Assembly (NCBI GenBank): GCA_037446775.1
Contig: JBBIIA010000010.1
Coordinates: forward strand, 1 to 54,392
From: Deltaproteobacteria bacterium
Lineage (GTDB): Bacteria > Desulfobacterota > Deferrisomatia > Deferrisomatales > JACRMM01
Reading direction: 5' to 3'
Length of the DNA stretch: 54,392 nucleotides
Positions 5,707 through 54,180 of this stretch are shown here, one piece after another. Below the pieces are notes generated by a model. It was not told the DNA's origin and did not search any database. It was given only the letters and a program-made list of their open reading frames with translations. A program made the translations under genes and the position numbers. Positions within the stretch are counted from its first letter, which is position 1. Each line of letters starts with the position of its first letter.

Positions 5707-5975
5707 CCTCGCTCCTCCGCTCACTAAAAATGGAATGGCTCCAAAAAAGCACAGCCGAAGAGGGAATACCACGAAGCGCCCCAGGATTTCAAGCGCCGAG
5801 CGACCCCGGAGCAGGCCAGGGTGAGCCCCTCGAGTCAGGGGTCGCGGCGATCCCCCGAGCCCCGCTCCTGGGGCCAATTCCCCGTGTCAGTTCGGCCGCT
5901 TGACTCCCCTTTTCCCATGGTCTACGGTACTCCTCCCTGGCCCACCCCTCCCCCGCACCGGGAGTCTCGCCCATC

Positions 5976-18580: not shown

Positions 18581-18723
18581 CCTACGGCGCCGCCGCGAGG
18601 CAGTTACCCCGCAACTTCCGCGGTTCGGCACCAGTGTAACAGCGTCGCGGGCGCCGACCAAACCTCAGGCGTGACCAAGCACCACCACCCGACCTGCCCG
18701 GGCCCAGGGCTGGCGAGGCTCTG

Positions 18724-18833: not shown

Positions 18834-19000
18834 CGTTCCCCGAAGCGCCCGCTGAAGACGAAACTTGACGCATCGTCGAAGATCTTCGCCCCTCAAGGGT
18901 TTCTAGTGGAGGGTCGCCCCAGCGGGCGGATCCCGGTTGACCGCGCCCGAGAGCCCCTGCTACAAGGGCCCGGTCCTACGGCCCTCCTGGAGACCCGACC

Positions 19001-30343: not shown

Positions 30344-30380
30344 CCTCTACTGACTTTCCTGACAGAATCGGTCCGCGTAA

Positions 30381-30516
30381 GGGGTTTTTTGACAGGATAA
30401 CAGGATAAAAGCAGGATAAATCGGATAAAGTCTTTTGTTTGAGGGCGGCGACACTGGTAGCAGCTACATCAGCCCCACCATCCTGAACATCCTGTTATCC
30501 TGTCAAAACCCCCCCG
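30381..30516. repeat. Intergenic inverted-repeat element, copy 3 (arms only: GGGGTTTTTTGACAGGATAACAGGAT ... ATCCTGTTATCCTGTCAAAACCCCC)
   Basis: Near-perfect, roughly 25-nt terminal inverted repeats around a core of about 85 nt that is AT-richer than its surroundings. The arms are themselves made of CAGGATAA-type direct sub-repeats. Lies between two genes of the hdr/flx cluster. Confidence 0.9.
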
Positions 30517-31542
30517 TCAAATCTTAGACACGTCCTGGACGATCTTTCGGATGTCCAGGTTTACTGGGCAGTTCAAGACGCAGCGGCCGCAGCCGACGCA
30601 GCCGATCAGGTCGAAGTTCTCGGGGATGTAGCGGAACTTGTGCATCACCCGCTGGCGCCAGCGCTCTTTTTGGCTCGACCTCGGGTTGTGGCCCGAGGCC
30701 TCCTTGGTGAAGAGCGGGAACATGCAGGAGTCCCAGCTCCGCAGCCGCACCCCGTCGTCCCCCTTCACCTCGTCGCTGATGTCGAAGCAGTGGCAGGTGG
30801 GGCAGAGGTAGGTGCAGGTGCCGCACGCCAGACACTTGCCGTGGAGCCCCGCCCAGAAGGGGTGCTCGAAGTTCTTCTGGAGGATCGGCTTCACCTCGGA
30901 CGCCGGCACCTGGGAGCGGATCGCCGCCCGGGCGGCCTCGCGCACCTGCTCCTTGCGGGCCGCCGCCTCGGCGCCGGCCGCCGGGCCCTCGAAGAACGAC
31001 AGGAGCGCCGCGCCCTTCTCGGTGAGGAACTCGGCCAGGACTTCTTCCCCCAGGTCGGTGACGAGCACGTCCACCCCCTCGGGGGCCCCGGGGACCGGCT
31101 CGCCCCCCACCGAGGTGCAAAAGCACGCGGCGTAGGGGGGCTGGGGGCACGCCAGGGCGACCACGGTGGCCCGCTCCCGGTGGCCGACGTAGTAGGGGTC
31201 GCGGCAGCCCGGCTGGTCGAACACCCGGTCCAGGAGCAAGAAGCTCTGGGCGTCGCACGGCCGCACCAGGAGCACCGTCTCCGCCGGCTCGTCCCCCTCG
31301 CCAACGGCCTCCACCCCCTTGGGGGTGCGGGTGTAGCGCACCAGGGTCTCGGTGTGGGGAAAGAGGGCGTTCTTCGGGGCGTTGCGGGTGTTGGCGAAGC
31401 CGAGCAGGGGCCCCTGCGACCCGGTTACCGGCCCGAAGACCACGTTGTCCCCGTCCTTCACCGGCCCGAGCACCCGCTTGGCGGCGGCGAGGCGCCGAAG
31501 TGCGTCGCCCAGGCCATCCTTCTTGAGCAGTCGCGTTTCCAT
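30517..31542 (-). CDS. 4Fe-4S dicluster oxidoreductase subunit (AsrA / HydB / FlxB-like)
   Basis: 341 aa from METRLLKKDG (ATG 31542 after GAGGAAA). Ferredoxin motifs CLACGTCTYLCPTC and CVGCGRCVLNCP. The 62-aa extension in the track was rejected. Confidence 0.8.
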   Translation of the reverse strand: METRLLKKDGLGDALRRLAAAKRVLGPVKDGDNVVFGPVTGSQGPLLGFANTRNAPKNALFPHTETLVRYTRTPKGVEAVGEGDEPAETVLLVRPCDAQSFLLLDRVFDQPGCRDPYYVGHRERATVVALACPQPPYAACFCTSVGGEPVPGAPEGVDVLVTDLGEEVLAEFLTEKGAALLSFFEGPAAGAEAAARKEQVREAARAAIRSQVPASEVKPILQKNFEHPFWAGLHGKCLACGTCTYLCPTCHCFDISDEVKGDDGVRLRSWDSCMFPLFTKEASGHNPRSSQKERWRQRVMHKFRYIPENFDLIGCVGCGRCVLNCPVNLDIRKIVQDVSKI

Positions 31543-31565
31543 GGGTTTCCTCGCGCTCGCCGGGG

Positions 31566-32411
31566 TCACAGGAAGATGCCCACCTGGCGCAGCAGCGGCA
31601 TGGGGTCGACGTGGTGATACTTGAGCCACTTGCCGGCGTCGGGGGCGCCCATGGCGAGCCCCATCAGCTCGGAGAAGTAAAAGATCGGCATGCCGTGGGT
31701 CGCCCGCATGTCCAGGTTGGCCATGCACTCGGGGCAGGCGGTCACGATGCAGTTGGCCCCGGCCTCCCGGGCCATGGCCACCAACCGGTCCACCAGCCGC
31801 ACCACCTGCTCGGTGCGGGCCACGGTGAGCGCCCCGCCGCAGCAGTCGGTCTTAAACGACCACGGCCGGGCCTCGGCCCCCAGGGCTTCTACCAGGTGGT
31901 CCATGGACATGGGGTTCTCGGGGTCGTCGAACCGGCAGACCTCGGGAGGGCGGACCAGCAGGCACCCGTAGTAGCTCGCCACCTTGAGGCCGGCGAGCTT
32001 GCGGGTCACCTTCTCCCGGATCGCCGGGAGGCCCACCTGGTTGACGTAAAAGTCCACCGAGTTGGTGATCCCCAGGTCGGCCTTGATCCGGCCCTGGAGC
32101 TCGTTCTCGATGCGGGCCTTCAGCTCGGGGTCGGCCTCAAGGTGGTGCTCGGCGGCCTTGAAGCGGTTGAAGCAGGCGGCGCACGGCACCATCACCTCCA
32201 GGCCCCGCTTCTGGGCGGCCATCAGGTTGCGGGCCGGCAGCACCACCCCCAGCTCGAAGTTGGTGGCGTGGCCCGAGGTGGCGCCGCAGCAGGTCCAGCC
32301 GTCCACCTCCACCAGGTTCACCCCCAGGGTCTTGGAGACCGACTGGATGGACTGGTCGTAGCCCTTGGCCGTGCCGTGCATGCAGCAGCCGGGATAGTAC
32401 GAGACGTTCAA
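31566..32411 (-). CDS. hdrB: Heterodisulfide reductase subunit B-like (two CCG domains)
   Basis: YYPGCCMHG...WTCCGATSG and YYGCLLVRP...DCCGGAL CCG-domain signatures. The TTG start overlaps the hdrC stop (TTGA). Confidence 0.88.
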   Translation of the reverse strand: MNVSYYPGCCMHGTAKGYDQSIQSVSKTLGVNLVEVDGWTCCGATSGHATNFELGVVLPARNLMAAQKRGLEVMVPCAACFNRFKAAEHHLEADPELKARIENELQGRIKADLGITNSVDFYVNQVGLPAIREKVTRKLAGLKVASYYGCLLVRPPEVCRFDDPENPMSMDHLVEALGAEARPWSFKTDCCGGALTVARTEQVVRLVDRLVAMAREAGANCIVTACPECMANLDMRATHGMPIFYFSELMGLAMGAPDAGKWLKYHHVDPMPLLRQVGIFL

Positions 32412-32965
32412 CGCGACTCTCCTTTACCGGGGGCGCCGCGGCCCTTGCGGGGGCGGTCGAAGATCTTGCGCACCTCTTGCTTGCCCTCGACCTTGGGGCC
32501 GAGGATCGGCAGCCGGCCCTTGGCGAACATCGAGAGGCCGATGCCCACGTCGGCGAAGAGGTCGCCGCTCTTCATCTTGTAGGCGCACACCATGAGGGCC
32601 TCGTGGATCCGGCCGTTCTTCTTGATGCTGTCGAGGAAGGCCTCGTGGAACGCGACGACCTTCTTCTCCGCCACCCGAACGCCGCTCTCCAGGGCCATCT
32701 GCCGCAGCACGTCCATCATGCGGGCGATGTCCACCTCGTTGGGGCAGCGCATGGTGCAGGTCTCGCAAGAGACGCACAGCCAAATGGTGGAGCTCCCCAG
32801 CACCTGCGGGCGCTGGTTTTGCTGCACCATCCGCACCACGGCGTTGGGCTTGTAGTCCATGGCGACCGCCATGGGGCACCCGGCGGTGCATTTGCGGCAG
32901 TGGAAGCACCGCTGGAGCGGCGCGCCCTTCACCTGGGCGTTCACGTCTTCGAGAAAGGTGGCCAT
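32408..32965 (-). CDS. hdrC: Heterodisulfide reductase subunit C-like
   Basis: 185 aa. CFHCRKCTAGCP and CVSCETCTMRCP 4Fe-4S motifs with the typical HdrC helical tail. Confidence 0.88.
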   Translation of the reverse strand: MATFLEDVNAQVKGAPLQRCFHCRKCTAGCPMAVAMDYKPNAVVRMVQQNQRPQVLGSSTIWLCVSCETCTMRCPNEVDIARMMDVLRQMALESGVRVAEKKVVAFHEAFLDSIKKNGRIHEALMVCAYKMKSGDLFADVGIGLSMFAKGRLPILGPKVEGKQEVRKIFDRPRKGRGAPGKGESR

Positions 32966-32986
32966 CGCTTGTCTCGCCCTTGATCC

Positions 32987-33994
32987 CTACGGGTTGTAAA
33001 TGAACGCCTCGGGGTCGTCTTCCTTGGCCTCGGCCAGCGCCGCCGGGTCCTCCGCCGAGAGCCCCGCCCTGCGGCCGAACAGCTCCAGCACGTCCTTGTC
33101 GAGCTTCTTGAGGAACCGCCGGAGGTCCACCCCCATGGGGCACACCGCGGTGCAGGACCCGCAGTCCACGCACCGCCCCGCCAGGTGGAAGAGCCGCATG
33201 AACTGGAACACCTGCACGTCGGAGGCGGCCTGGCCGATGCCCACCCACTGGGGCTGGCTCTGTTCGGCGAAGCACGTCCGGCAGTAGCAGGAGGGGCAGG
33301 CGTTGCGGCAGGCGTTGCACCGCATGCACTTGGCCATCTCGGCGGCAAAGCCCTGCCAGCGCGCCTCGGCGGAGAGCTTCTCCACCGCCTCCACCGGGGC
33401 GAACTCGCGGCTGGCGTCGTGGGGCGGGGCCGGTTCGCCGAGCATCACGTCGGAGAAGACCGGGTTGTTGAAGGCGCAGGAGGCGCAGCTGTCGGCCAAG
33501 AGCTCCGCCAGGGGCAGCTCCCGGTTGCCGGCGGCGGTCTCGACGGTCACCGCTCTCGCCCCAAAGGACCCGCCCTGGAGCTCCTCGCTGCCGGCGGCCT
33601 TGAGGAGTTTGCGGCGGTCCACCACCCCGGCGCAGGGGACCCCCAAGACCAGCACCTCGTCCCGGCCGTACTGGCGCTCGTTGAGGTGGATCGCCAGGGA
33701 CCGGGTGGTGCAGCCGGGGGCCACCACGGCGACCACCTTCTTCTTGCGGTCCTCGGGCTTGAGGCGCTTCTGGCTGTCCCGGTGGGCCATCACCTGGTCG
33801 TGGACGTACTTGGCCAGGTTCTGGCCGCAGCCCGGGTTCCACACCAGGCGCGCTACGTCCTCGGCCCGGGTGAGGAAGGCCGGGGTGGCGGTCAGGGGCA
33901 GGGTGCCGTCCTCGAACCCGACCACCACCTGGGCCCGGCCCTCGGCCAAGGCCCGGGCCGCTTCTTCTCGCATCTTCGTCACGATCTTGTCCAC
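32987..33994 (-). CDS. Fe-S oxidoreductase subunit, two [4Fe-4S] motifs (FlxC-like / Hdr-associated)
   Basis: 335 aa. CMRCNACRNACPSC and CVDCGSCTAVCP. GTG start 33994 follows AAGAGG. The N-terminal domain could not be assigned by eye. Confidence 0.7.
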   Translation of the reverse strand: MDKIVTKMREEAARALAEGRAQVVVGFEDGTLPLTATPAFLTRAEDVARLVWNPGCGQNLAKYVHDQVMAHRDSQKRLKPEDRKKKVVAVVAPGCTTRSLAIHLNERQYGRDEVLVLGVPCAGVVDRRKLLKAAGSEELQGGSFGARAVTVETAAGNRELPLAELLADSCASCAFNNPVFSDVMLGEPAPPHDASREFAPVEAVEKLSAEARWQGFAAEMAKCMRCNACRNACPSCYCRTCFAEQSQPQWVGIGQAASDVQVFQFMRLFHLAGRCVDCGSCTAVCPMGVDLRRFLKKLDKDVLELFGRRAGLSAEDPAALAEAKEDDPEAFIYNP

Positions 33995-34026
33995 GACTCA
34001 AACCTCTTGGCACTACAGCGGCTGGT

Positions 34027-34182
34027 GGGGGGAAACCCCACGGGATCCGCAGATTACGCAGATTACGCAGATGAAACCGGATGCGTATGGGGTCGGTGGT
34101 TCCAATCCCATGGTCACCCTTGAACAGCAGTGCATTCGGCGTGTCGTCCCGCCCGGAAGAAATCTGCGAAAATCTGCGGACC
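34027..34182. repeat. Intergenic element with inverted tandem 9-10-mers (CGCAGATTA x3 at 34048..34074; AATCTGCG x2 at 34161..34178)
   Basis: Read directly. Same architecture (direct sub-repeats forming inverted arms around a core of about 85 nt) as the element at 30381..30516, but a different sequence. Fills the mvhD / Fe-S gene spacer. Confidence 0.8.
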
Positions 34183-34194
34183 CGTCGCCCTAGT

Positions 34195-34659
34195 TCACAC
34201 GATCGCGGTAACCGGCTCGTCCAGGCGCTTCACCAGGCGGGTGGCGGGCCCGAGCTTTCGCACCTTGTCGGTGACGCCCTTCACCACCTGGGCGAAGCGG
34301 TCGCCCTCGGAGGCCGACACCCAGGTAAACGACGTCCGGTCGGCCTCGACCCCCACGTAGTCGAGAAAGCCCTTCAATAGGGCGAACTTCCGCCGGGCCG
34401 ACAGGTTCCCGGTGAGATAGTGGCACTCCCCGGGGTGGCAGCCCGAGATGAGCACCCCGTCGGCCCCCTCCTGGAGCGCCTTGACCACGTAAAACGGGTT
34501 GATCCGCCCGGTGCACGGCACCCGGACGATCCGCACGTTGGGCGGGTACTGGATGCGGCTGATCCCGGCGAGGTCCGCCCCGGCGTAGGTGCACCAGGTG
34601 CACACGATGGCGAGGATCTTGGGCTCCCAGGGTTCGGTCTTCGCGGCTGGTTCGGCCAT
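34195..34659 (-). CDS. mvhD: MvhD/FlxD-like [2Fe-2S] electron-transfer subunit (methyl-viologen-reducing hydrogenase delta-subunit family)
   Basis: KILAIVCTWCTYAGADLAG...RVPCTGRINP...ISGCHPGECHY signature. Start taken at MAEPAAK (ATG 34659, GAGG 10 nt upstream). The track ORF begins 24 nt earlier. Confidence 0.88.
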   Translation of the reverse strand: MAEPAAKTEPWEPKILAIVCTWCTYAGADLAGISRIQYPPNVRIVRVPCTGRINPFYVVKALQEGADGVLISGCHPGECHYLTGNLSARRKFALLKGFLDYVGVEADRTSFTWVSASEGDRFAQVVKGVTDKVRKLGPATRLVKRLDEPVTAIV

Positions 34660-34718
34660 GTTCGATATACCTCGATGGTGCATGCTCGATGCTCGATCCG
34701 GGAAGCGAGCCCCCCGTT

Positions 34719-34788
34719 CCCTACGCCCTACTCCCTACACCCTACTCACTACTCGCCATTCGCCATTCACCATTCACCATTCCCTACA
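34719..34788. repeat. Tandem heptanucleotide array of 10 units (CCCTACG CCCTACT CCCTACA CCCTACT CACTACT CGCCATT x2 CACCATT x2 CCCTACA)
   Basis: Read directly, exact period 7. The last unit contains the TAG stop (34784..34786) of the HdrL-like gene. A TGCTCGA x2 doublet lies at 34684..34697. Confidence 0.9.
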
Positions 34789-37700
34789 TCGCCCCAATCT
34801 GCGCCAGGATCTCCTCGTTATTAAACCCGTTGAGGTCCACGGCGTTCATGCGGCAGGAGGAGGTGCAGACCCCGCAGCCCTTGCACAGCACGGTGTTGAC
34901 CACTGCGGCGAGCTCCTTGGGGTCGACGGCGATGGCGCTGTAGGGGCAGTTGATCTCGCACAGCCCGCACGCCATGCACCGCTCCTTAATCACGTACGCG
35001 GTCTTGCCCTCGGCTTCGATGTAGGGCTGGGTGAGGACCGTGGCGGCCCGCGAGACGGCGGCGTTGGCCTGGGTGACACTCTCGTCGCTCATCTTCGGCG
35101 AGTGGGCGAGGCCGCAGACGAAGACCCCGTCGGTGGCAAAATCCACCGGCCGCAGCTTCACGTGGGCCTCCAGGAAGAAGCCGTCCTGGTTGGTGGGCAC
35201 CTTGAGCATCTTGCCGATGTCGGCGTTTTCCGGGTTGGGGGCCACCCCCACGCTCAGTACCACCAGGTCGGCCCCCAGGTGCACCGGCTGGTTTAGGACC
35301 GGGTCGAAGGCCCGCACCGCCACCCCACCCCCCTGGGCAAAGACCTCGGGGCGGCGCTCCTCGTCGTAGCGCACGAACTGGATGCCGAGCTCCCGGGCCT
35401 CCCGGTAGAAGTCCTCCTTGAGGCCGTAGGTCCGCACGTCCCGGTACAGGATGGTGATCTCCCGAGCCGGGTCCGCCTTCTTCAGCCGCAGCGCGTTTTT
35501 AATCGCCTCGCTGCAGCAGTAGCGGCTGCAGTAGGGGTGCTCGGCGGTGCGGGAGCCCACGCACTGGATCATCACCACCCGCTTGATCGCCCCCAGGCGC
35601 GGGTCGTCCTCCCCCAGGGCGCCCTCGAGCTCCCGCTGGGTGACCACCCGCTCGGAGTGGCCGTACAGGTAGTCGGTGACCTCCATCTCCTGGCCGCCGG
35701 CGGCCACGATCACCACCCCGTGGTCGAACTGCCGCTCCCCCTCGGGGGTGGCGACGGTGGTCTGGTAGTTGCCGATGAAGCCGTCGATCTTGTCGGCCCG
35801 GGACCCGGTGTAGACGGTGATCCGGGGGTTCTTGGCCACCTGGTCCAAGAGCTTTCGCAGGTGCTTCTGGGTGTCGAAGCCCTCCAGGGTGAAGTGGAGG
35901 TGGCGGTAGTTGCCCCCGAGCTCGGGCTCCTTTTCGACGATGCAGGAGTCAAAGCCCTGGTCGGCGAGCGTCAGGGCCGCGGTGATGCCCGCGAGGCCGC
36001 CCCCGAGGATCAGGGCCGCCGGGGTCACCGGGAGCTGGCCGGGCTTCAAGGGCTTTAAGTACGCGGACTTGGCCACCGCCATCCGCACCAGGTCCTTGGC
36101 CTTGACGGTGGCCGCCTCGGGCTCGTGCATGTGCACCCAGGAGCCCTGGTCCCGGATGTTGGCCATCTCGAAGAGGTAGGGGTTGAGGCCCGCCTTCTCC
36201 AGGTTCTCCTGAAACAGGCCCTCGTGGGTGCGGGGCGAGCAGGAGGCGACCACCACCCGGGTGAGGTCGTGGTCCCGGATCGCCTCGGCCATCTTCACCG
36301 CCGAGTCCTGGGAGCAGGTGAAGAGGTTGTCGCAGACGAAGGAGACGTTGGGCAGGCCCTTGGCGTACTCGGCCACCCCGGGGACGTCGATCACGCCGCC
36401 GATGTTGATGCCGCAGTGGCAGACGAAGACCCCGACCCGGGGGCCAGTGCCCTGGAGGTCCTTCTCGGCGGGGAGCTCCTCCTCCGCCACCAGGGTGCCC
36501 CGCTGGCTCGCCAAGAGGCCCTGGACGCACGCCGCGGCGCCGCTCGCCTCCATGACCGTCTCGGGGATGTCCTTGGGGCCGCCAAAGGCGCCGCAGACGT
36601 AGACCCCGGGGCGGGAGGTGGCCGCCGGGTTTTCGAGCGAGGTCTGGCAAAAGCCGCTGGGGGTCAGCTCGATCCCCAGGGCCCGGGCGAGCTCGGGGGC
36701 CTCCGCCGGGGGGGTGAGGCCCACCGACAGGACCACCATCTCGAACTCCTCCTCCACCGAGGTGCCGTCCTCCTGGACGTAGGTGAGCAAGAGGTTCTTC
36801 GAGCGCTGGAGCTCCTTGACCGTGGAGGGGATCGACCGGATGTAGCGGATGCCGTAATCCTTCTTCGCCCGCTCCACGAAGCGGTCGAAGTCCTTGCCGT
36901 GGGCGCGGATGTCCATGAAGAAGATGGTCGGCTCCAGGGCCTTGGCGTGCTCCTTGCCGATGATCGCCTCCTTGGTGGCGTACATGCAGCACACCGAGGA
37001 GCACCAGGTGTTGCCGCAGCGCACGTCCCGGGAGCCGACGCACTGCAAGAAGGCGATCTTCTTCGGCTCCTTGCCGTCGGAGATCCGCTGGACGTGGCCG
37101 AAGTAGGGCCCCGAGGCCGAGAGGATCCGCTCGAACTGGACGCTCGTCACCACGTTGGGGTAGACCCCGAAGCCGTACTCCCCAAGCGCCGCCGGGTCGA
37201 AGGCCGTAAAGCCGGGGGCGGCGATCACCGCCCCCACCTGGAGCTCGACGGTCCGGGGCGCGTCGTCGTGGACCACCGCCCGGGCGATGCACGCCTCGAC
37301 GCACTGGTAGCACTCGGAGCACAAGCCGCAGGAGAGGCAGCGCTCGGCCTCGGCCCGGGCCTGGGCCTCGGTCATGGGCTGGATGACTTCGCGGAAGTGG
37401 GTGCGCCGCTCCGCGGGGGGCAGGTGGGGCATGTGGAGCCGGGGGGCCTTGGGGGTCGCGCTCACGTCCCCCGGGTCGGCCAGGTTCTCCTCCCAGTTCC
37501 GGGCCCGGCCTGCGGCCAGGTCTTCGCCCCGCAGGAAGCGGTCGATGGAGACCGCGGCCTCCTTGCCGGCGTTGACCGCCTTGACCACCGTGGCCGGGCC
37601 GGTCACCGCGTCGCCGCCGGCGAAGACGCCGGGCAGGCTGGTGGCAAAGGTCACCGGGTCGGCGTCGATCTGGTTCCACCGGTTGACCACCGCGCCGCTG

Positions 37701-39208
37701 CCGTTGGCGAGAAACGACAGGTCGCACTGCTGGCCGATGGCGGGCACCACCGCGTCCACCTCGAGCTGGAACTCCGAGCCCTTCACCGGCACCGGCCGAC
37801 GCCGCCCCGAGGCGTCGGGCTCGCCGAGCGCCATGCGGACGCACTCGATGGCCCGGACCTTGCCGTTTTCGCCGATGACCCGCACCGGCGCCACCAGAAA
37901 CTCCATGCGGACGCCCTCGTCCAGGGCCTCCTCGATCTCCTCGGGGGCGGCGGGCATCTCGGCCCGGCCGCGGCGGTACAGGCAGACCACGTCCTTGGAG
38001 CCGGTGCGCAGCGCCGTGCGCACCGCGTCCATGGCCACGTTGCCGCCCCCCACCACGGCCACCCGGTTGCCCAAAAAGACCTTCTCCCCGAGGTTGATGC
38101 GCTTGAGGTAGTCGACCCCGTGGACGACCCCCTCCAACTCCTCCCCGGGGACGTCCAGCTTGGCGCCCTTTTGGGCCCCCACCGCCACGAAGACCGCGTC
38201 GTAGTCGCGGCGCAGGTCGGCAAAGGCCACGTCGGTGCCCACCGCGGTGTTGAGGCGGATGTCCACCCCCAGGTCGCGGATCGCCTGGATCTCGGCGCCC
38301 AAGACGTCCCGGGGCAGCCGGTACTCGGGGATCCCCGCCCACATCCAGCCCCCCGCCACCGGCAGGGCCTCGAAGACGGTGACGTCGTAGCCCTCGGCGG
38401 CCAAAAAGTACGCCGCGGTGAGCCCGCCGGGGCCGGCCCCGACGATGGCGACCTTCTTGCCCTGCTTCGCCTTCACCTCGGGCACGTAGCGGGTCTCGGC
38501 CTTCAAGTCCAGGTCGGCCACGAAGCGCTTGAGGTGCATGATGTCGATGGGCTCGTCCACCTCGGCCCGCTTGCAGGCGGCCTCGCAGGGGTGGTTGCAG
38601 ACCCGGCCGCACACCGAGGGGAAGGGGTTCTCCTGCTTGATCAGCTTCAAAGCCTCGGCGTACTTGCCCTGGCCGATCAGGGCTACGTACCCCTGGACGC
38701 TGATGTGGGTGGGGCAGGCGGCCTTGCACGGCGAGGTGCCCCGCTTCTCGATGGCGAAGGCGGCGGGGATGGCCTGGGGGAAGTGGCGGTACGCCGCGGT
38801 GCGGGTGGCCAGGCCGCCGTTGAACTCGTCGGGCCGGGGCACCGGGCACACCTTGGCGCAGTCGCCGCAGCCCGTGCACTTGTCCAGGTCGACGAAGCGG
38901 GGGGCCTGGGCGAGCCGCACGGTGAAGCGGCCGGCCGTCCCCTCCACCGCTTCCACGGTGGCCTGGGTAAGGATCTCCACGTTGGGGTGGCGCCCCACCT
39001 CCACGAGCTTCGGCGACAGGATGCACGCCGAGCAGTCGTTGGTGGGGAAGGTCTTGTCCAGCTGGGCCATGACCCCGCCGATCGAGATCCCCTTCTCCAC
39101 CAGGTAGACCTTCATCCCGGAGTTGGCGAGGTCCAAGGACGCCTGGATGCCGGCGATCCCCGCCCCCACCACCATGACTGCGCCTACGTTTGAGCCGTTC
39201 GTCGACAC
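34784..39208 (-). CDS. HdrL-like giant flavoprotein: HdrA module with an inserted GltD/NfnB-like NAD(P)H module, followed by a second HdrA-like module and a 2x[4Fe-4S] ferredoxin tail
   Basis: Uninterrupted 1509-codon ORF. Start chosen at GTG 39208 (AAGGAAG SD 6 nt upstream), giving 1474 aa. Four dinucleotide-binding motifs (VVGAGIAGI, IVGAGPGGL, VVGGGNVAMD, ILGGGLAGI). HdrA signatures: DKTFPTNDCSACIL, QCVGSRD...CSSVCCMY, GVFVCHCGINIGG, QCVGSRT...CSRYCCS. GltD-like signature: GRVCNHPCEAAC. Confidence 0.9.
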   Translation of the reverse strand: MSTNGSNVGAVMVVGAGIAGIQASLDLANSGMKVYLVEKGISIGGVMAQLDKTFPTNDCSACILSPKLVEVGRHPNVEILTQATVEAVEGTAGRFTVRLAQAPRFVDLDKCTGCGDCAKVCPVPRPDEFNGGLATRTAAYRHFPQAIPAAFAIEKRGTSPCKAACPTHISVQGYVALIGQGKYAEALKLIKQENPFPSVCGRVCNHPCEAACKRAEVDEPIDIMHLKRFVADLDLKAETRYVPEVKAKQGKKVAIVGAGPGGLTAAYFLAAEGYDVTVFEALPVAGGWMWAGIPEYRLPRDVLGAEIQAIRDLGVDIRLNTAVGTDVAFADLRRDYDAVFVAVGAQKGAKLDVPGEELEGVVHGVDYLKRINLGEKVFLGNRVAVVGGGNVAMDAVRTALRTGSKDVVCLYRRGRAEMPAAPEEIEEALDEGVRMEFLVAPVRVIGENGKVRAIECVRMALGEPDASGRRRPVPVKGSEFQLEVDAVVPAIGQQCDLSFLANGSGAVVNRWNQIDADPVTFATSLPGVFAGGDAVTGPATVVKAVNAGKEAAVSIDRFLRGEDLAAGRARNWEENLADPGDVSATPKAPRLHMPHLPPAERRTHFREVIQPMTEAQARAEAERCLSCGLCSECYQCVEACIARAVVHDDAPRTVELQVGAVIAAPGFTAFDPAALGEYGFGVYPNVVTSVQFERILSASGPYFGHVQRISDGKEPKKIAFLQCVGSRDVRCGNTWCSSVCCMYATKEAIIGKEHAKALEPTIFFMDIRAHGKDFDRFVERAKKDYGIRYIRSIPSTVKELQRSKNLLLTYVQEDGTSVEEEFEMVVLSVGLTPPAEAPELARALGIELTPSGFCQTSLENPAATSRPGVYVCGAFGGPKDIPETVMEASGAAACVQGLLASQRGTLVAEEELPAEKDLQGTGPRVGVFVCHCGINIGGVIDVPGVAEYAKGLPNVSFVCDNLFTCSQDSAVKMAEAIRDHDLTRVVVASCSPRTHEGLFQENLEKAGLNPYLFEMANIRDQGSWVHMHEPEAATVKAKDLVRMAVAKSAYLKPLKPGQLPVTPAALILGGGLAGITAALTLADQGFDSCIVEKEPELGGNYRHLHFTLEGFDTQKHLRKLLDQVAKNPRITVYTGSRADKIDGFIGNYQTTVATPEGERQFDHGVVIVAAGGQEMEVTDYLYGHSERVVTQRELEGALGEDDPRLGAIKRVVMIQCVGSRTAEHPYCSRYCCSEAIKNALRLKKADPAREITILYRDVRTYGLKEDFYREARELGIQFVRYDEERRPEVFAQGGGVAVRAFDPVLNQPVHLGADLVVLSVGVAPNPENADIGKMLKVPTNQDGFFLEAHVKLRPVDFATDGVFVCGLAHSPKMSDESVTQANAAVSRAATVLTQPYIEAEGKTAYVIKERCMACGLCEINCPYSAIAVDPKELAAVVNTVLCKGCGVCTSSCRMNAVDLNGFNNEEILAQIGAM

Positions 39209-39359
39209 GGGTTCTTCCTTCGGACTCGGCGTGAAGTCGCTACCGTTCGGGTCTTCGCCCGTCGTGCACGGAGGCACAAGGGCGGGCAGGCCCTGCCTTG
39301 TACTAAACGTCACGGGCCGGAGTCAAGGCCCGCGACGGCGGTCGCCCCCGGTATCCGGT

Positions 39360-43467: not shown

Positions 43468-44841
43468 CTAGTCCAACCGCGGCACCGCACCCGGGGGGCA
43501 GTCGACCCGGGCCCGGGCTTCCTTGAGCTTGAAGCCGGGGCTCCGGGAGCGGGTGTGGCACCCCCGGCACCCCTCGGCCGCGGCGGCCAGGGAGCGGGGC
43601 ATGGGGGCGGCGGGGTGGAGGCTCCCGGGCCCGTGGCACGCCTCGCACTGGACGCCCCCCAGGTCGACGGTCGCCCCCTCGGCCCAGCCTCCCCACTCCC
43701 CGAACCCGGTCACGTGGCACTCCAGGCACTCGGCCCGCCGCCGGTCCCCCGGCGGCAGCCGCTCCAGGGCCCGGGCGTGAGGCTGGGTCCGCCACTGCCG
43801 GTGGGCGTCCGAATGGCACCGCGCGCACTCCCGGGCCGACACGTACAGGGCCCCGCCCTGGCGGACGTTGACCGCCAGTTCCTCTTCGTCCGAGACGATC
43901 CCGTGGGGCACCCGCAGCTTGGCGACGGCGGCAAAGCGGTAGTAGCGGTCGACCAGCCGGCGGACGGCGGGCTCGTCGGGATACTCGGGCTTCATGGCCA
44001 CGAGCCCATGGGTCAGGGCAGCCCGCCCCCCGGGCAAGCCGGTGACGGTGACGTGGCCGAGGTAGCGCCCCAGGTGGGCGACGCTGCCCACCAGCGCCGA
44101 ACCGATCCGCCACGGCAGGCGGACCTTGTCGTCGGGGTCCCCGGCGACCAGGAGGTCCACCTCGTCCACGGTCTTGGCGGCCAACCGAAGCTTCTTGGGG
44201 TCCACCGCCGACAGGACCACCACCAGGTCACACCCGGCGGCCTTCAGCTCCTGGGCGTACCGCTTGATCGCCCCAAAGGTGGGTTCGAGGCGGAAGTCGT
44301 CGCCGAACTCCCGGACCTGCAGGGTCGAGTCGAGGATCCCCACCAGCCCCACCCGAAACCCTCCGGCCCCCACGATCACCCACGGGCGGAACACCGGGTC
44401 CCCCGAGTTGCGGTCGACGAGGTTGGCACACAGGAAGGGAAATCGGGCCCTCGCCTCCAGGGCACGCAAGAACGGCAAACCGGCGGCGAAATCGTAGGGC
44501 CCCAGTCCCATCGCGGCGACCCCGATCTCGTTGTAGGCGTCGATGATGGTCTCCGCCTTGAACCGGAGCTGCTCGGCTTCGATGGGCCGGAGCTGGCTGC
44601 GACCGAAGAGCGCGTTGCCCCCGTCGAGCGCTAGAACCGCCGCGCCCCGCCGCCGGGCATCCTTGACGAAGTGAGCCTTCTTGGCGAGACCGCCAAGTGG
44701 GTTCTGGGCTCACCCGCAGATGCCGACGGTCCCTCGCACCTCCGAGGTGTACACCAGGTGCACGGCCGCGGTCTCCGTCGGCACGACGGCGACCGCTTCG
44801 GAGATCCCGAGGAGCAGCAGGATCAGCAACAGCCACGCCAT
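43468..44841 (-). CDS. Candidate selenoprotein: secreted degenerate 5'-nucleotidase/metallophosphoesterase-like domain fused to a tetraheme cytochrome c; in-frame TGA (44710..44712) read as Sec
   Basis: The ATG 44841 ORF (MAWLLLILLLLGISEAVA signal peptide) continues in frame through one TGA into track ORF 43468..44511. The junction reads ...VRGTVGICG-[TGA]-AQNPLGGLAKKAHF.... The C-terminus has 4 CXXCH sites (CARCH, CLECH, CEACH, CRGCH). The paralog at 44989..46398 has a TGA at the same aligned position. Confidence 0.7.
44680..44697 (-). other. SECIS-like hairpin downstream of the in-frame TGA of the minus-strand paralog
   Basis: CTTGGCG-GTCT-CGCCAAG, a perfect 7-bp stem starting 13 nt after the TGA. 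GGTCT occupies +19..+23. Confidence 0.5.
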
Positions 44842-44899
44842 GGATTTCCTCTCCCGGAGCCAGGTTTTCCTCCTCGCTCCACCCCACGGGTCAGGACCC

Positions 44900-44929
44900 T
44901 TGAACCCTTTATCACAGGTCTGTTATGGT
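44900..44929 (+). promoter_or_regulatory. Possible sigma70-type promoter for the plus-strand paralog (TTGAAC-18 nt-TATGGT)
   Basis: Hexamer matches only. It lies in the 147-bp divergent spacer and is followed by the palindrome TCCCGCG-GT-CGCGGGA (44940..44955), GAGGAG and ATG 44989. Confidence 0.3.
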
Positions 44930-44988
44930 CAGCACGTTGTCCCGCGGTCGCGGGAGAACGCCTATCGCCTTCCCGCCGAGGAGTCAGC

Positions 44989-46398
44989 ATGCGCTCGATC
45001 GCCATGGCCACCCTACTCGGACTCGCCCTCATCGGCCAGCCCACCCGAGCGACGACAACGCCGCCCGCCGGCTTCACCCTGCTGTACTCCGCGGACGAAC
45101 GGGGCGAGATCGAGCCCTGCGGGTGACAGGACAACCCGCGTGGCGGTCTGGCCAAGCGAGCGACGTACATCCAGGGCGTTCGCGCCGAAGGGCGACCCCA
45201 CCTGGTGGTGTCGGCCGGTAACCTGTTGTTTCGCCGGGAGCGGCTGAAGGCGGAGCACCGGGAGGCGGATCGCCTCAAGGCGGACCTGCTGCTCCGGGGC
45301 TACCACCTCACGGGGATCGACGCCCTCAACGTCGGCGCCTACGACCTCTCCCTGGGCGTCGGCTACCTTCGGGCCAAGCAAGCCGAGCACCGCCTCCCGC
45401 TGCTCTCGGCGAACCTCCGCGACGAGAAGGGGAACCTCTGGTTTCGGCCCCACGTCCTCAAGGAGGTCGGGGGCGTCAAGGTGGGCATCCTCGGCCTCAC
45501 CGATCCCCGACTGAAGGTGGACAAGATCCCCGGGGGAGAGCAGGTGCGGGTTCAGCCCCCCCGGGAGAGCGTGGATGCCGCCGTGCGCGAGCTCAAGGCC
45601 CAGGGCGCCACCTACCTCGTGCTCCTGACCGATATGACCAGCCGATCCCTGCGCCGACTCGCCGCCAAGGGGCTCCCCGTAGACGCCATCATCGCCAGCG
45701 ACGAGCGCAACCAGATCGCCTCCCCCTTCTTCCTCGGTCCTACCTACGTGACCCACCTGGACCGGGGAGGCAAGTGCATCGGCCGCCTCGAGGTGGCCCT
45801 GCTCAAGCCCGGGCAGGAGCCACCGCCGGGCACCCTGCGCACCACCGGGCGCCCCGGAGGGGAAGTGGCCTACCGAAACACCTTCGTCCAACTGCGGCTC
45901 TCGATCCCCGACGACCCGATCCTCGGCCCGCTGGTAGCGGCGGTCGCCCAGCGGGTGGCCGAACTCCAGGAGGAGTCGAGCAAGAAGCTCCAGCCGGTGG
46001 CCGACTCCGACTGCGGCAAGCGGTATCTCGGCGCCGGCGCCTGCGTCTCCTGCCACTCGGACCGCCACCGGGGCTGGTCGGCCACCAGCCACGCCCTGGC
46101 GTACACCACCTTGGTCAAGCGCAAGAAGCAGTTCGACGAGGACTGCCTCGCCTGCCACACCTTGGGTTTCGAGTGTGAAGGGGGGTTCTTCGACCCGGAG
46201 AACCTGGGCGGCTTCGCCCACGTCCAGTGCGAATCCTGCCACGGTCCGGGGCAGGTCCACGTGGAAGCCAAGGGCAAGGCCCCCATGCCCACCCGTCGCC
46301 CCTCGGCCGCCGTGTGTCGCCGTTGCCACACCGAGGAGAAGAGCCCGGATCTAGACCTCGCCCGGGCCCGCCTGACGATCTGCCGCCCCGCTCCCTAG
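44989..46398 (+). CDS. Candidate selenoprotein: secreted degenerate 5'-nucleotidase/metallophosphoesterase-like domain fused to a tetraheme cytochrome c; in-frame TGA (45124..45126) read as Sec
   Basis: ATG 44989 follows GAGGAG. Signal peptide MRSIAMATLLGLALIG. Same frame as track ORF 45205..46398. The junction reads ...ADERGEIEPCG-[TGA]-QDNPRGGLAKRATYI.... The C-terminus has 4 CXXCH sites (CVSCH, CLACH, CESCH, CRRCH). Confidence 0.7.
45137..45158 (+). other. SECIS-like hairpin downstream of the in-frame TGA of the plus-strand paralog
   Basis: CGCGTGGC-GGTCTG-GCCAAGCG, an 8-position stem with one mismatch that starts 11 nt after the TGA. GGTCT occupies +19..+23, the same offset as in the other paralog. 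Confidence 0.45.
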
Positions 46399-46536: not shown

Positions 46537-48372
46537 TCAGTGGGCCAAAAACCCCCAGACGATCAAGCCGATGCACAGGAGGCCGATCCCCAGGGCGGTG
46601 AACCCGAAGAGGTGCCCCAGGAGGTCGGCGAGGGGGTGGGTCGGTTTGGCGCGCATCGACTCCAGGGTGCCCTTGGCGCGGAGCCGCTCCACCCAGGAGG
46701 CCCGTTCCTCCCACAGCTCGTACTTCGGCATCCGTCCCTGGAAGATCACCATGTCCATGGGGAACTTACCGGGCCGGAAGTGGGTGTTGAAGAAGTGCAC
46801 CGTGAAGATGAAGCCGGTCGCCAAGAGGGCCTCGTCGCTGTGGACGATGATGGCGACGTTGAAGATCCACCCGGGGAGGACCGCGCCAAACCACTCGGGG
46901 AACCACAGCAGAAGCCCCGAGCCGCCGATGGCGAACATCCCCCAGAAGACCGCCAGGAAGTCGAACTTCTCCCAGTACGTCCAGCGGTCGAAGGTCGGCT
47001 CCTTCCCGCGGCCGAAGAACCACCGGATCATCGCTCCGATGTCCGTCACGTCCCGCCGGTTGGGGAAGAGGGAGTCGGGCCCAAAGAGCTTCTGCCAGAA
47101 GCTCTCTCCGGTCTTCTTGAACAGCAAGTAGTAACAGACGTAGGCGAGGCAGGCACCGAAGTACACGAAGGTGACCACGGCGCACACCCGGTGCCAATAC
47201 CCCGCCATGTGCGGTCCGCCCAAAAGCTTCATGATCGCCGGCGCCCAGGGGGCGTCGTAAAACTTGAGGGGCAGGCCGGTGATGACCAGGCCCAGGAAGC
47301 TCACCACCATCAGAAGGTGCTGCATCCGATCGAACCCGTTGAACCGCCGGTAGGGCCGCAGGGGCTCGTCCACGTGGGGGTGGGCGTAGTGCCCATCCAG
47401 AAGCTTCTGGCAGCGGGCCCAGTAGGCCTTGCGCCACCACAAGAAGGTGTGGAGCCAGAAGACCGCGAAGACCGCCACCAGGAGGCTCGTCATGGCCACG
47501 AAGGTGTAGTACAGGACGGGGTAGTTTTCCTTGTCCCGGTGGTCGGCGTGGGACAGGAACTGGGCGAAGAGCGGCGTCGCGTGGGGGTGGCAGACGGCGC
47601 AGGTCGCCACCACCCGGTCCGGGTGAATGGTCGACTCGGGATCGTCGGCCCGGCGCACCGCGTGGGCGCTGTGGCAGTCGGCACACCCCGCGGCCAGGGC
47701 CGAGCCGAGGGCCTCGACCTTGCCGTGGTAGCTCTCCTCGTAGGTCCTGGAAGCCACCACAAGAACGTCGTTGCGCGCCATCATGGCGGCGTCGGCGTGG
47801 CAGCGCTGGCAGGTCTCGGTGTGGAACTCCCGGCCGGCGTGGGTGTTCTTGTCGGGCACCGGCTCGATGCGGTGCATGCCGTGGCAGTCCGCACAGGACG
47901 CCGAGTCGTTGTTCCCCGCCGCCACCGCCACCCCGTGGACGCTAGCCAGGTAGGCATCGCCGTCGTGGCAGCCGAGGCACTTGTCCACCACGCTCTGCTT
48001 GTTGCCGTCCCACTTCTGGATGGTGTGCACGTCCGAGTGGCAGTCCGCGCACTTGATGTCGTTGAGCATGTGGGCCGAGGCGAAGTGGTCACGCCCCTGG
48101 TTGGGATGGCAGCGGTGGCAGGTGTCCACCTTGTCCTGGGTCCGGGACCCGCAAGTCTCGTGGTCGGCGATGTCGACCACGTCGTAGTGGCAGCTGTTGC
48201 AGGCGTGGCGGCCGTGGGCAGAAGCGGCGAACGCCGCGTAGTCCATCTCCTCGTGGCACTCGATGCACCGACTGTCGTCGATGGTCGCCCACGCCACCGG
48301 CACGCCCCCCAAGAGCAGCAACGCACCCAGGACCCAACTCCCCAATCGTCCCTCGTCCAAACGGATACGCAT
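46537..48372 (-). CDS. CbcL-like fusion: periplasmic nine-heme cytochrome c domain plus integral-membrane b-type cytochrome (HydC/FdnI-like) domain
   Basis: 611 aa with a signal/anchor sequence. Nine CXXCH sites (CIECH, CNSCH, CHRCH, CADCH, CLGCH, CADCH, CQRCH, CADCH, CAVCH). These are followed by 4-5 TM helices with conserved His (e.g. RMQHLLMV, YWHRVCAV, IIVHSDEAL, FTVHFFNTH). Confidence 0.88.
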   Translation of the reverse strand: MRIRLDEGRLGSWVLGALLLLGGVPVAWATIDDSRCIECHEEMDYAAFAASAHGRHACNSCHYDVVDIADHETCGSRTQDKVDTCHRCHPNQGRDHFASAHMLNDIKCADCHSDVHTIQKWDGNKQSVVDKCLGCHDGDAYLASVHGVAVAAGNNDSASCADCHGMHRIEPVPDKNTHAGREFHTETCQRCHADAAMMARNDVLVVASRTYEESYHGKVEALGSALAAGCADCHSAHAVRRADDPESTIHPDRVVATCAVCHPHATPLFAQFLSHADHRDKENYPVLYYTFVAMTSLLVAVFAVFWLHTFLWWRKAYWARCQKLLDGHYAHPHVDEPLRPYRRFNGFDRMQHLLMVVSFLGLVITGLPLKFYDAPWAPAIMKLLGGPHMAGYWHRVCAVVTFVYFGACLAYVCYYLLFKKTGESFWQKLFGPDSLFPNRRDVTDIGAMIRWFFGRGKEPTFDRWTYWEKFDFLAVFWGMFAIGGSGLLLWFPEWFGAVLPGWIFNVAIIVHSDEALLATGFIFTVHFFNTHFRPGKFPMDMVIFQGRMPKYELWEERASWVERLRAKGTLESMRAKPTHPLADLLGHLFGFTALGIGLLCIGLIVWGFLAH

Positions 48373-52083: not shown

Positions 52084-52098
52084 CGGAAAGGAGCGGGC

Positions 52099-54180
52099 AT
52101 GAAGCGCTACGAGGTGGAGAAGATCCGAAACGTCGCCCTCATCGGCCCCGGGGGGGCCGGCAAGACCAGCCTCGGCGAGGCGATCCTGTACACGACCGGG
52201 GTCTCCTCGCGCCTCGGCCGGGTTGACGACGGCTCCTCGACCCTCGACTTCGAGCCCGAGGAGAAGGCGCACCGCCTCACCATCTCCACCTCCCTGGCCA
52301 GCATCGAGGTCGACAAGCACAAGCTCAACCTCCTCGACACCCCCGGCTACGACGTCTTCCTGTACGACGCCCAGTCGGTCCTCCAGGGGGTCGACGCGGC
52401 GGTCCTGGTGGTGGCCGCCGAACCGGTGGTCAAGTTTGAAGCCAACAAGCTGTGGTCTTACTGCGACGACTACCAGCTGCCGCGGGCGGTGGTCATCAAC
52501 CGCCTGGACAGGGAGAACGCCACCTTCTCCGGGGCCCTCGAGGCGCTCCGGGAGGCCTTTGGGCCCTCCCTGGCCGCCCTCCACCTGCCCCTGGGAGCCG
52601 AGGCCGGGTTTCGGGGCTACGTCGACTTGATCCGCATGGTCGCGGTGAGCTTTCCGGCCGACGGGGCCAAGGGGACCGAGGGGCCGGTGCCGTCCGAGCT
52701 CGCCGCCGAGGCACAAGCCGCGCGGGACGTGCTGGTGGAGCACCTGGTGGAGACCGACGACCAGCTGATGGAGAAGTTCTTCGACGGCCAGGAGATCACC
52801 CTGGCCGAGCTCACCGGGGCCCTGCGCAAGGGGGTGGCCTCGCGCCAGGTGGTACCGGTACTGGCCGCCGCCGCCACCCGCGCCATCGGCGCCACCGCGC
52901 TCTTGGACTTCATCATCCAGGCGTTCCCCTCGCCCCAGGAGCGCCCCCCGGTCACCGGCACCGCCCCGGACGGCTCCGCGGCGGTGCGCGCCCCCAGGGA
53001 GGACGGCCCCTTCGCCGCCCTGGTCTTCAAGACCGTGTCGGACCCCTTCACCGGCCGGCTCAACTTGTTTCGGGTGCTGAGCGGCTCCCTCTCCTCCGAC
53101 TCCACGGTGTGGAACGCAACCCGGGGGGTCGAGGAGCGGGTCGGCCAGCTCTTCACCCTGGTGGGCAAGGAGACCAAGACCGTGCCCGTGGCGGGCCTGG
53201 GGGACATCCTAGCCGTCGCCAAGTTCAAGGAGACCACCACCGGGGACACCCTCACCGACAAGGCCAACCCCTTGCGCCTCCCCCGGGCCCAGCCCCCGGA
53301 GCCCCTGATGACCTTTGCCGTTTACCCCAAGGCCCGGGGGGACGAGGAGAAGATGGGCCAGGGCCTGCGGCGCATGCAGGACGAGGACTCGACCGTGCGC
53401 CTCAGCCGCGAGGAGCAGACCCACGAGCTCCTGGTGTCGGGCATGGGTCGGCTGCACATGGACATTCTGTGCGAGCGGATGAAGCGCAAGTACGGCGCCG
53501 ACGTCGAGCTGCGCCTGCCGAAGGTCCCGTACCGAGAGACCATCAAGGGCACCACCAAGGTCCAGGGCCGCCACAAGAAGCAGAGCGGCGGCCGGGGCCA
53601 GTTCGGCGACACCTGGATCGAGATCCGGCCCCTGCCCCGGGGGGAGGGTTTCCGCTTCGTGGACAAGATCGTGGGGGGTGCCATTCCCCGCCAGTACATC
53701 CCGGCGGTGGAAGACGGCATCCGGGAAGCGACCACCCACGGGATCCTGGCCGGCTACCCGGTGGTCGACCTGGAGGTCACCCTCTTCGACGGCAAGTACC
53801 ACGACGTCGACTCCTCGGAGATGGCATTTAAGATCGCCGGCTCCCTGGGCTTTAAGAAGGGCGCGGTGGAGTGCCGGCCCGTGCTCCTGGAGCCGATCAT
53901 GGAACTGGCCGTGCGCGTCCCCGACGCCTCCATGGGGGACATCATCGGCGACCTCAACTCCCGCCGGGGCCGGGTCCTGGGCATGGATCCCGAGGCGGGC
54001 ACCCAGGTAATCCGGGCCCACGTCCCCCTGTCGGAGGTCCTCGAGTACGCCCCCGACCTGCGGTCGATGACCTCCGGGCGCGGCACCTTCACCATGAAGT
54101 TCGACCACTACGACGAGGTGCCGGGCCACCTCTCCGAGAAGATCGTCGCCACGGCCAGAGCCGAGCGAGGCGACGACTAG
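52099..54180 (+). CDS. Elongation factor G paralog (EF-G-like GTPase with divergent G1 motif)
   Basis: 693 aa with five-domain EF-G organisation. G1 GPGGAGKTS, G3 DTPGY, G4 NRLD. Domain IV/V motifs HDVDSSEMAFKIAG and EPIMELAVRVP. ATG follows AAAGGAG. Confidence 0.9.
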   Translation: MKRYEVEKIRNVALIGPGGAGKTSLGEAILYTTGVSSRLGRVDDGSSTLDFEPEEKAHRLTISTSLASIEVDKHKLNLLDTPGYDVFLYDAQSVLQGVDAAVLVVAAEPVVKFEANKLWSYCDDYQLPRAVVINRLDRENATFSGALEALREAFGPSLAALHLPLGAEAGFRGYVDLIRMVAVSFPADGAKGTEGPVPSELAAEAQAARDVLVEHLVETDDQLMEKFFDGQEITLAELTGALRKGVASRQVVPVLAAAATRAIGATALLDFIIQAFPSPQERPPVTGTAPDGSAAVRAPREDGPFAALVFKTVSDPFTGRLNLFRVLSGSLSSDSTVWNATRGVEERVGQLFTLVGKETKTVPVAGLGDILAVAKFKETTTGDTLTDKANPLRLPRAQPPEPLMTFAVYPKARGDEEKMGQGLRRMQDEDSTVRLSREEQTHELLVSGMGRLHMDILCERMKRKYGADVELRLPKVPYRETIKGTTKVQGRHKKQSGGRGQFGDTWIEIRPLPRGEGFRFVDKIVGGAIPRQYIPAVEDGIREATTHGILAGYPVVDLEVTLFDGKYHDVDSSEMAFKIAGSLGFKKGAVECRPVLLEPIMELAVRVPDASMGDIIGDLNSRRGRVLGMDPEAGTQVIRAHVPLSEVLEYAPDLRSMTSGRGTFTMKFDHYDEVPGHLSEKIVATARAERGDD

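Follow-up and report, generated by a model that had tools for sequence, protein, structure and literature searches.

A predicted secreted UshA-like selenoprotein and its divergently encoded paralog in a deltaproteobacterial contig

Two divergent genes with an in-frame TGA

Contig JBBIIA010000010.1 of a Deltaproteobacteria bacterium (assembly GCA_037446775.1, order Deferrisomatales) was analysed over a stretch of 54,392 nucleotides, referred to here as the window. At 43468..44841 its minus strand carries a coding sequence of 457 codons, identified by translation and by a match to the NCBIfam profile NF041198. It runs from ATG 44841..44839 to TAG 43470..43468 and contains exactly one internal stop, TGA 44712..44710, at codon 44 and directly after Cys-Gly. 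The translation consists of MAWLLLILLLLGISEAVAVVPTETAAVHLVYTSEVRGTVGICG, the TGA at 44712..44710 and AQNPLGGLAKK, and continues from there to the TAG; the residues directly preceding the TGA are VRGTVGICG. A first-pass annotation of this DNA had proposed the same frame with the same single stop, and both were reproduced. The motif Cys-Gly-Sec (Sec, selenocysteine; TGC GGG TGA) occupies 44710..44718, with the Sec codon at 44710..44712. A Shine–Dalgarno-like sequence, GGGAGAGG, was read 6 nt upstream of ATG 44841 (44848..44855, minus strand). A hydrophobic N-terminal signal peptide, MAWLLLILLLLGISEAVAVVPT (44776..44841, minus strand), is coded solely upstream of the TGA, and its first ∼20 residues (MAWLLLILLLLGISEAVAV...) form a typical export signal.

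A paralog lies on the plus strand at 44989..46398 (469 codons), where translation places the Sec codon at 45124..45126 after EPCG (...EIEPCG). The two genes are separated by a divergent intergenic region of 147 bp (44842..44988), in which no match to the sigma-70 consensus was found. The paralogs are 37% identical as proteins and 52% identical in DNA overall, with 21 of 24 nucleotides identical in the stretch coding for N-P-x-G-G-L-A-K. TGA is also the normal terminator of many other well-supported genes of the window, so no reassignment of the code has taken place. Additional in-frame TGAs with coding-like flanks were sought in a crude scan of the window, which returned ordinary gene junctions only; as it missed both known sites as well, the scan carries no weight.

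The minus-strand frame 44841..43468 is very probably one gene that codes for a secreted selenoprotein of a known family, the UshA-like (seleno)proteins with a PCGU motif (NF041198), and as part of the same reading the plus-strand neighbour is, with equal confidence, a diverged paralog that is recoded in the same way. NF041198 ('UshA_like_PCGU') is an NCBIfam model with a curated equivalog cut-off of 275 bits. With U written as C, the minus copy scored 304.4 bits and the plus copy 346.1 bits, both above the cut-off, and Cys-Gly-Sec stands at the equal profile position in both. The alignment of the minus copy passes uninterrupted through the UGA position, residues 5–267 of the protein corresponding to profile positions 2–266. 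In separate scans of its domains, the N-terminal 269 residues matched profile positions 2–265 and the C-terminal 168 residues positions 365–517; since both domains match, the family model already covers the 5'-nucleotidase-like N-terminal and the multiheme C-terminal domain. The window proteins differ from the model in several respects. The plus copy reads EPCG-U, whereas the minus copy has Ile in place of Pro before CGU (GICG-U; ICG-U and MCG-U in its orthologs), ∼100 central profile positions (∼267–364) are missing from both copies, and two Sec-containing copies stand back to back. The public records of this contig and of the closest relatives give N-truncated 'multiheme c-type cytochromes' only, which lack the signal peptide.

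Zhang & Gladyshev (2008; PMC2398784) name 'COG0737, UshA-like, CxU' as one of the major marine selenoproteins, and the UshA-like CxU family was listed again in reviews of 2022 and 2026 (PMC9312934, PMC13188914). The family has therefore been catalogued since 2008 and has a curated model; the window contributes two members and is not a discovery. The high interest assigned to the site in the first-pass annotation was overrated in this respect. A second model, NF049981 ('UshA-like (seleno)protein family 2'), shows weak N-terminal similarity to the window proteins, but membership was rejected because their scores of 22 and 39 bits fall below the cut-off of 140 and their motif is CxU rather than CxxU.

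Conservation of the UGA and of the reading frame

An alignment-based scan of species-representative genomes yielded more than 535 relatives across many phyla, of which 80 loci were kept. Codons were counted at 85 homologous sites, comprising these 80 genome loci plus the window. The Sec column contained TGA at 56 sites, TGC at 17 and TGT at 12, and neither TAA nor TAG occurred; PCGC stands at the Sec position of the full-length homologs P0037, P0045 and P0053. The close homologs come from metagenome-assembled genomes (MAGs) of Deferrisomatales, are 45–57% identical and are all annotated 40–70 residues short at the N-terminus. Upstream of the annotated starts, the frame reads ...LRGTVGICG-TGA-VKNPLGGLAKK in the contig of locus L081 (hairpin CUUGGCGGUCUCGCCAAG) and ...VRGTVGMCG-TGA-AQNPLGGLAKR in that of L083 (hairpin CUUGGCGGUCUUGCCAAG), so that the peptides flanking the UGA are conserved on both sides. 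Both TGA and hairpin are kept in these orthologs at ∼50% identity, the hairpins being identical or wobble-compatible; retention of the stem by orthologs that keep the TGA had been named in the first-pass annotation as a check on the recoding, and its outcome is positive. The same gene with the same TGA was found on three more contigs (L084–L086), which derive from the MAG assemblies GCA_964638445.1 and GCA_037439625.1 and from one public-run assembly. Metagenomes were searched with a DNA pattern in which TGA, AAYCC and GGNGGTCT were fixed and the stem was left free; 120 loci were returned, and 104 distinct sites had no stop after the TGA in the available codons (up to 150 checked). The family is abundant in marine metagenomes.

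Nothing beyond the stop codon itself would point to an error of sequencing or assembly, or to a gene recently inactivated by mutation. The same TGA is present in the three independently assembled contigs, in the diverged paralog, in the orthologs at ∼50% identity, at 54 further genome sites and at the 104 metagenome sites; this explanation is already refuted and its probability is negligible. The first-pass annotation had argued from the divergence of the two paralogs against an error or a pseudogene, and this argument is correct.

The locus could also give two products, a leader of 43 residues ending at the TGA and a protein from an internal start such as Met 44511. This is how the gene is publicly annotated and how gene callers split it (P0001 with 347 residues; open reading frames for 43 residues in L082, L084 and L085). 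The family profile is nevertheless continuous across the TGA, the intervening 66 codons, from the TGA to Met 44511, show conservation (NPLGGLAKK...DGGN...) and the Cys homologs are single polypeptides. Heme is attached to c-type cytochromes in the periplasm and export is needed for it; the four CXXCH motifs of the protein described below therefore call for a signal peptide, which is present only upstream of the TGA, and this supports read-through. Two separate products are extremely unlikely. Taken together, the alternation of Sec and Cys, the truncated homologs whose frame continues upstream through the TGA, the repeat assemblies, the unaltered code and the logic of export exclude a sequencing error, a recent pseudogene and a start at Met 44511.

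Paired copies of the family recur elsewhere. Tandem paralogs, one with TGA and one with Cys, were seen in L005, L007, L010, L022, L035 and L043 (Planctomycetota and unclassified MAGs) and in L036; the TGA copy reads PCG-U-PK(R/K)K(I/V)KLGSL and the Cys copy VCGC-K(R/H)K(K/E)VRQGS, and a hairpin of the CUGGGC-AGUUUG-CCCAG type is present in the Sec copy and not in the Cys copy. In the window both copies are Sec forms. In many of the marine loci L087–L206 the TGA is followed, ∼2.0–2.2 kb downstream, by a tRNA-Gly(GCC) encoded on its own strand, and ∼308 nt upstream of it the opposite strand carries a tRNA-Ala(GGC); this looks like conserved synteny in one abundant marine lineage.

The hairpin 3' of the UGA and its decoding

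By folding, the minus-strand mRNA forms the hairpin CUUGGCG-GUCU-CGCCAAG (44680..44697, minus strand), a putative selenocysteine insertion sequence (SECIS) with a perfect stem of 7 bp that is coded by the L-G-G-L-A-K codons. A spacer of 12 nt separates it from the TGA, the stem opening at the 13th nucleotide, and GGTCT stands at +19..+23 after the TGA (44691..44687); the hairpin and this offset, both reported in the first-pass annotation, were recovered. The corresponding element of the plus copy, CGC-G-UGGC-GGUCUG-GCCA-A-GCG (45137..45158, plus strand), was also obtained by folding. It has GGUCU at 45145..45149, at the same offset as in the minus copy, and a weaker stem of 4 bp, a G.A mismatch and 3 bp. 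Its sequence is repeated in the orthologs L001 and L002, and variants of it occur in L006 and L069.

The experimentally defined SECIS element of E. coli fdhF, whose sequence was verified in 5,419 genomes, likewise lies within the coding sequence immediately 3' of the UGA and has GGUCU at +19..+23, an offset equal to that of both window genes. The fdhF-type geometry, with a stem ∼11–13 nt after the UGA and G and U in an apical loop ∼20 nt downstream, is thus present, and binding of SelB is predicted from it. The G and U at +20 and +21 of the fdhF element are the bases contacted by SelB (G23 and U24 in the usual numbering). The window elements differ from that of fdhF in that the stem sequence is unrelated, in that the minus-copy stem is a perfect 7 bp without a bulged U, and in that codons of a conserved GG(L)A(K/R) motif make up the element, which occurs across the family in two alternative stem registers.

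These two registers lie beneath an invariant GGUCU and are set by the residue after Leu (Ala versus Ser or Pro). A single-register model with 7 bp for all members of the GGUCU type was tried and failed on the Ser/Pro sequences, which are explained by a second register with a 5 nt GGUCU loop. In register A (Ala after Leu, the register of the window; n = 51), 84% of cells are paired compared with 74.5% in shuffles, and the covariation score is 0.329 compared with 0.171, a value reached by none of 500 shuffles; slid controls gave 31–51% paired cells. Position pair 18–31 is UA in 27 sequences and GC in 16, and pair 16–33 is CG in 25, UA in nine and GC in five. In register B (Ser or Pro after Leu; n = 68), the stem is moved by one base, the loop is exactly GGUCU and 93% of cells are paired; pair 18–30, in which both bases are synonymous third positions, is GC in 34 sequences, AU in 23, GU in six and CG in four. 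Slid controls overall had 22–55% of cells paired, against 84–93% in the real registers. Sec and Cys forms also prefer different codons here. Ala, whose codon pairs with that of the first Gly, is written GCC in 36 of 41 Sec forms and in one of ten Cys forms (Fisher p = 6e-6); for the first Gly itself, GGC is used by 43 of 54 Sec forms and by 12 of 29 Cys forms. Compensatory substitutions of the kind used to recognise bacterial SECIS elements of the fdhF type were thus found in the family; a check on the stem for such changes had been proposed for the two paralogs, and in the family alignment it is positive.

Free energy was of no help in recognising the element. When the 16 codons after the TGA were recoded synonymously from each gene's own codon usage, the minimum free energy (MFE) of the minus copy had z = −0.54, with 35% of the recodings folding at least as well, and the plus copy, with z = +0.81, folded worse than average. 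Family-wide, the MFE z-score did not differ significantly between Sec and Cys forms (Mann–Whitney p = 0.28). The 43 nt minus segment gave z = −2.78 against plain dinucleotide shuffles. The hairpin is energetically unremarkable because a GGLAK peptide in DNA of 70% G+C tends to form hairpins anyway, and the comparison with synonymous recodings was dropped as SECIS evidence, as it did not discriminate. Together with these MFE results, several further observations weigh against reading the hairpins as SECIS elements: the plus-copy stem has two mismatches, the covariation sets consist of related sequences of which the metagenome part was fetched with TGA and GGTCT fixed, and Rfam returned no SECIS or other relevant family, either at the gathering threshold or at E ≤ 10. 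The perfect hairpin, which the first-pass annotation had offered as evidence, is present and covaries in the family, but is not thermodynamically significant given its peptide and base composition. On its own it is weak evidence, and it is covariation and codon bias that speak for the stem.

The hairpin could also be a by-product of L-G-G-L-A-K in DNA of 70% G+C without a role in recoding, the UGA then being read through or Sec being inserted by another signal. The near-equal folding of synonymous recodings and the lack of a significant difference in MFE z-score between Sec and Cys forms agree with this explanation, as does the strong hairpin of some Cys forms (L050, L068). It does not account for the compensatory changes at synonymous third positions (the GC, AU and CG states of pair 18–30), for a stem that is retained in a second register where Ser or Pro replaces Ala, for the separate codon preferences of Sec and Cys forms at precisely those positions that pair, or for GGUCU at the fdhF offset, and it is unlikely.

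Members of the family from Krumholzibacteriota, Fibrobacterota and Planctomycetota have different hairpins. Sec forms without GGUCU were seen in L012, L017, L020, L021, L023, L029, L031 and others (Krumholzibacteriota, Fibrobacterota); they have a GGCCC-GGA-GGGCC hairpin ∼9 nt further downstream, coded by Ala-Arg-Arg-Ala codons with an unusual CGG-AGG pair, and this may be a second SECIS style within the same family. In the window the UGA itself can take part in a lower stem around the SECIS hairpin (44672..44712, minus strand), UGAGCC pairing with GGCUCA at 44677..44672; this stem occurs in the window species only and is not kept in the orthologs L081 and L083.

As to the decoding step, the ribosome would meet the UGA at 44712..44710 while the mRNA just 3' of it folds into the short hairpin that displays GGUCU at +19..+23; SelB carrying Sec-tRNA(Sec) would bind the loop and insert selenocysteine, giving ...G-I-C-G-U-A-Q-N-P-L-G-G-L-A-K.... 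SelB-dependent insertion, and with it the capacity of the organism to decode Sec, is inferred here. The Sec machinery itself is absent from the window, which is a further point against this decoding: no tRNA-Sec, SelA, SelB or SelD was found in the 54 kb, in which the only tRNA is a tRNA-Pro and the GTPase at 52084..54180 is elongation factor G. SelA, SelB and SelD were sought by family scans of 20 of the larger predicted genes and SelD additionally by tblastn over the whole window. Across the window plus 206 fetched loci (1.77 Mb), tRNA-Sec (ARAGORN) and SelD (tblastn with an approximate E. coli query) were likewise not found. In a window of only 54 kb, missing sel genes carry no meaning.

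This absence is what would favour another decoding of the UGA, by near-cognate readthrough as Trp or Cys, or as Cys via the Sec pathway where the organism lacks selenium or makes little use of it. Against it stand the membership in a recognised selenoprotein family with strict Sec/Cys alternation, the SelB-type loop conserved at the canonical distance, the use of TGA as terminator by many other genes of the window and the small size of the window, and such decoding is very unlikely. The Cys-Gly-UGA site had been proposed as a Sec recoding site from the letters of the window; the proposal is now supported by NF041198, by the Sec/Cys pairing, by the TGA and hairpin of the orthologs and by the compensatory changes in the stem.

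Domains, neighbourhood and possible function

The N-terminal domain of the minus-strand selenoprotein (44041..44772, minus strand) has a 5'-nucleotidase (calcineurin-like) fold, assigned from PDB sequence matches to CpdB, SoxB and UshA with E of ∼1e-10. Its dinuclear-metal ligands are replaced: the alignments show GD changed to GN (GGN), GNH(E) to GPY(D) and GHTH to GDPD, and a change of DxH to ExR (E-V-R in SEVRG) was read by eye from the order of the motifs. Across the family, too, the replaced positions lack conservation. A model of the Cys homolog P0053 had a predicted local distance difference test score (pLDDT) of mostly 80–97 in the N-domain, with the PCGC loop and the heme domain at low confidence, and matched 5'-nucleotidase structures with a Foldseek probability of 1.00 over ∼310–340 columns. 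Because the metal ligands are gone, the N-domain probably does not hydrolyse phosphoesters, and nucleotidase is not an appropriate name for the protein.

The C-terminal substrate-binding domain PF02872 of 5'-nucleotidases was not found; the C-terminal third is matched by cytochrome families only, a tetraheme domain having taken its place. This cytochrome c554-like domain (43540..43845, minus strand; Pfam PF13435, E = 1.1e-12; PDB entries 1bvb/1ft5, E = 3e-9) contains the motifs CARCH, CLECH, CEACH and CRGCH, all four of which are invariant in alignment A1. Cytochrome c554 is a free-standing electron carrier of ammonia oxidisers, whereas here the domain is a fused C-terminal module. The sequence thus has both the CXXCH motifs and the hydrophobic N-terminus, as export signal, of a multiheme cytochrome c, and heme attachment is predicted. 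In other relatives (P0048–P0050, P0054) the c554-like module is combined with redoxin/AhpC-TSA domains, and L016, L032 and L044 encode Cys forms of ∼950 residues with an extra C-terminal region that gives weak DsbA/thioredoxin-like matches. This pairing of the tetraheme module with thiol redox domains weakly hints at a redox role.

A membrane protein of 611 residues is encoded nearby at 46537..48372 (minus strand); according to its Pfam and NCBIfam matches it combines nine CXXCH motifs with a C-terminal cytochrome b-type membrane domain, for which Pfam gives weak hints (DUF4405 here and Ni_hydr_CYTB in the L081 ortholog). In L081 the selenoprotein ortholog is directly followed downstream by a gene whose product is 69% identical to this protein. 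Presumably the protein resembles the CbcL-type quinol oxidoreductases of Geobacter, and it is a candidate for the quinol-side electron partner. Clustering of neighbours over 83 loci revealed no gene that travels universally with the family; the neighbours are lineage-specific.

Further redox genes occur elsewhere in the window. A cluster at 29477..39322 (minus strand) comprises a frame of 1512 codons that fuses GltD-like and HdrA-like modules, followed by genes for FlpD/MvhD-like, Fe–S, HdrC-like, HdrB-like and AsrA/AsrB-like (sulfhydrogenase beta/gamma-like) proteins; relatives of several of these are selenoproteins, and the genes have no in-frame TGA here. A multiheme NapC/NirT-like cytochrome (3487..5886, minus strand; a frame of 799 codons) is divergent from maf (5904..6560, plus strand). 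The gene that stands divergently beside maf in L081 and L083 is the selenoprotein ortholog itself, and this placement suggests that a rearrangement separated the genes in the window genome. A methyltransferase gene at 17744..18664 (minus strand) has among its best NCBIfam matches the methyltransferase domains of the double-selenoprotein families NF047649, NF041537 and NF041536. Only the methyltransferase domain matches, and a TGA-linked extension was not looked for on either side; on the upstream side, the gene at 18941 shares its divergent promoter region with this one, which leaves no room for an N-terminal extension.

With the metal ligands lost, a role as redox centre, of the selenenylsulfide or chalcogen-binding type, is more likely for the Cys-Gly-Sec loop, with the fused tetraheme domain serving it. 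Such a centre would trade electrons with the tetraheme domain; a second partner, in this lineage, would be the nine-heme/cytochrome b membrane protein encoded next to it. A broader proposal, which we regard as speculative and rather doubtful, is that the UshA-like/tetraheme selenoproteins form the catalytic periplasmic end of a quinol-linked chain, the link here being the adjacent nine-heme/cytochrome b protein. The former phosphoesterase pocket would have become a Cys-Gly-Sec chalcogen redox site that turns over sulfur, selenium or a similar inorganic substrate, and the two copies could act as a heterodimer. Two points tell against these functional assignments: they draw only on the loss of motifs, the fusion of domains and a single conserved neighbour, and literature searches found no biochemical study of the UshA-like selenoprotein family.

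In practical terms the result is a correction of annotation, in which reading through the UGA restores a secreted selenoprotein of two domains. The gene belongs to a catalogued family of selenoproteins whose members are shortened by standard gene callers, and nothing here alters existing knowledge of recoding. Hypotheses for the function of the family are provided by the lost metal ligands, by a SECIS element formed from GGLA(K/R) codons and by the tetraheme module that is recurrently fused to thiol-redox domains. If the proposal of a quinol-linked Cys-Gly-Sec site were true, these proteins would represent an enzyme class that nobody has characterised.

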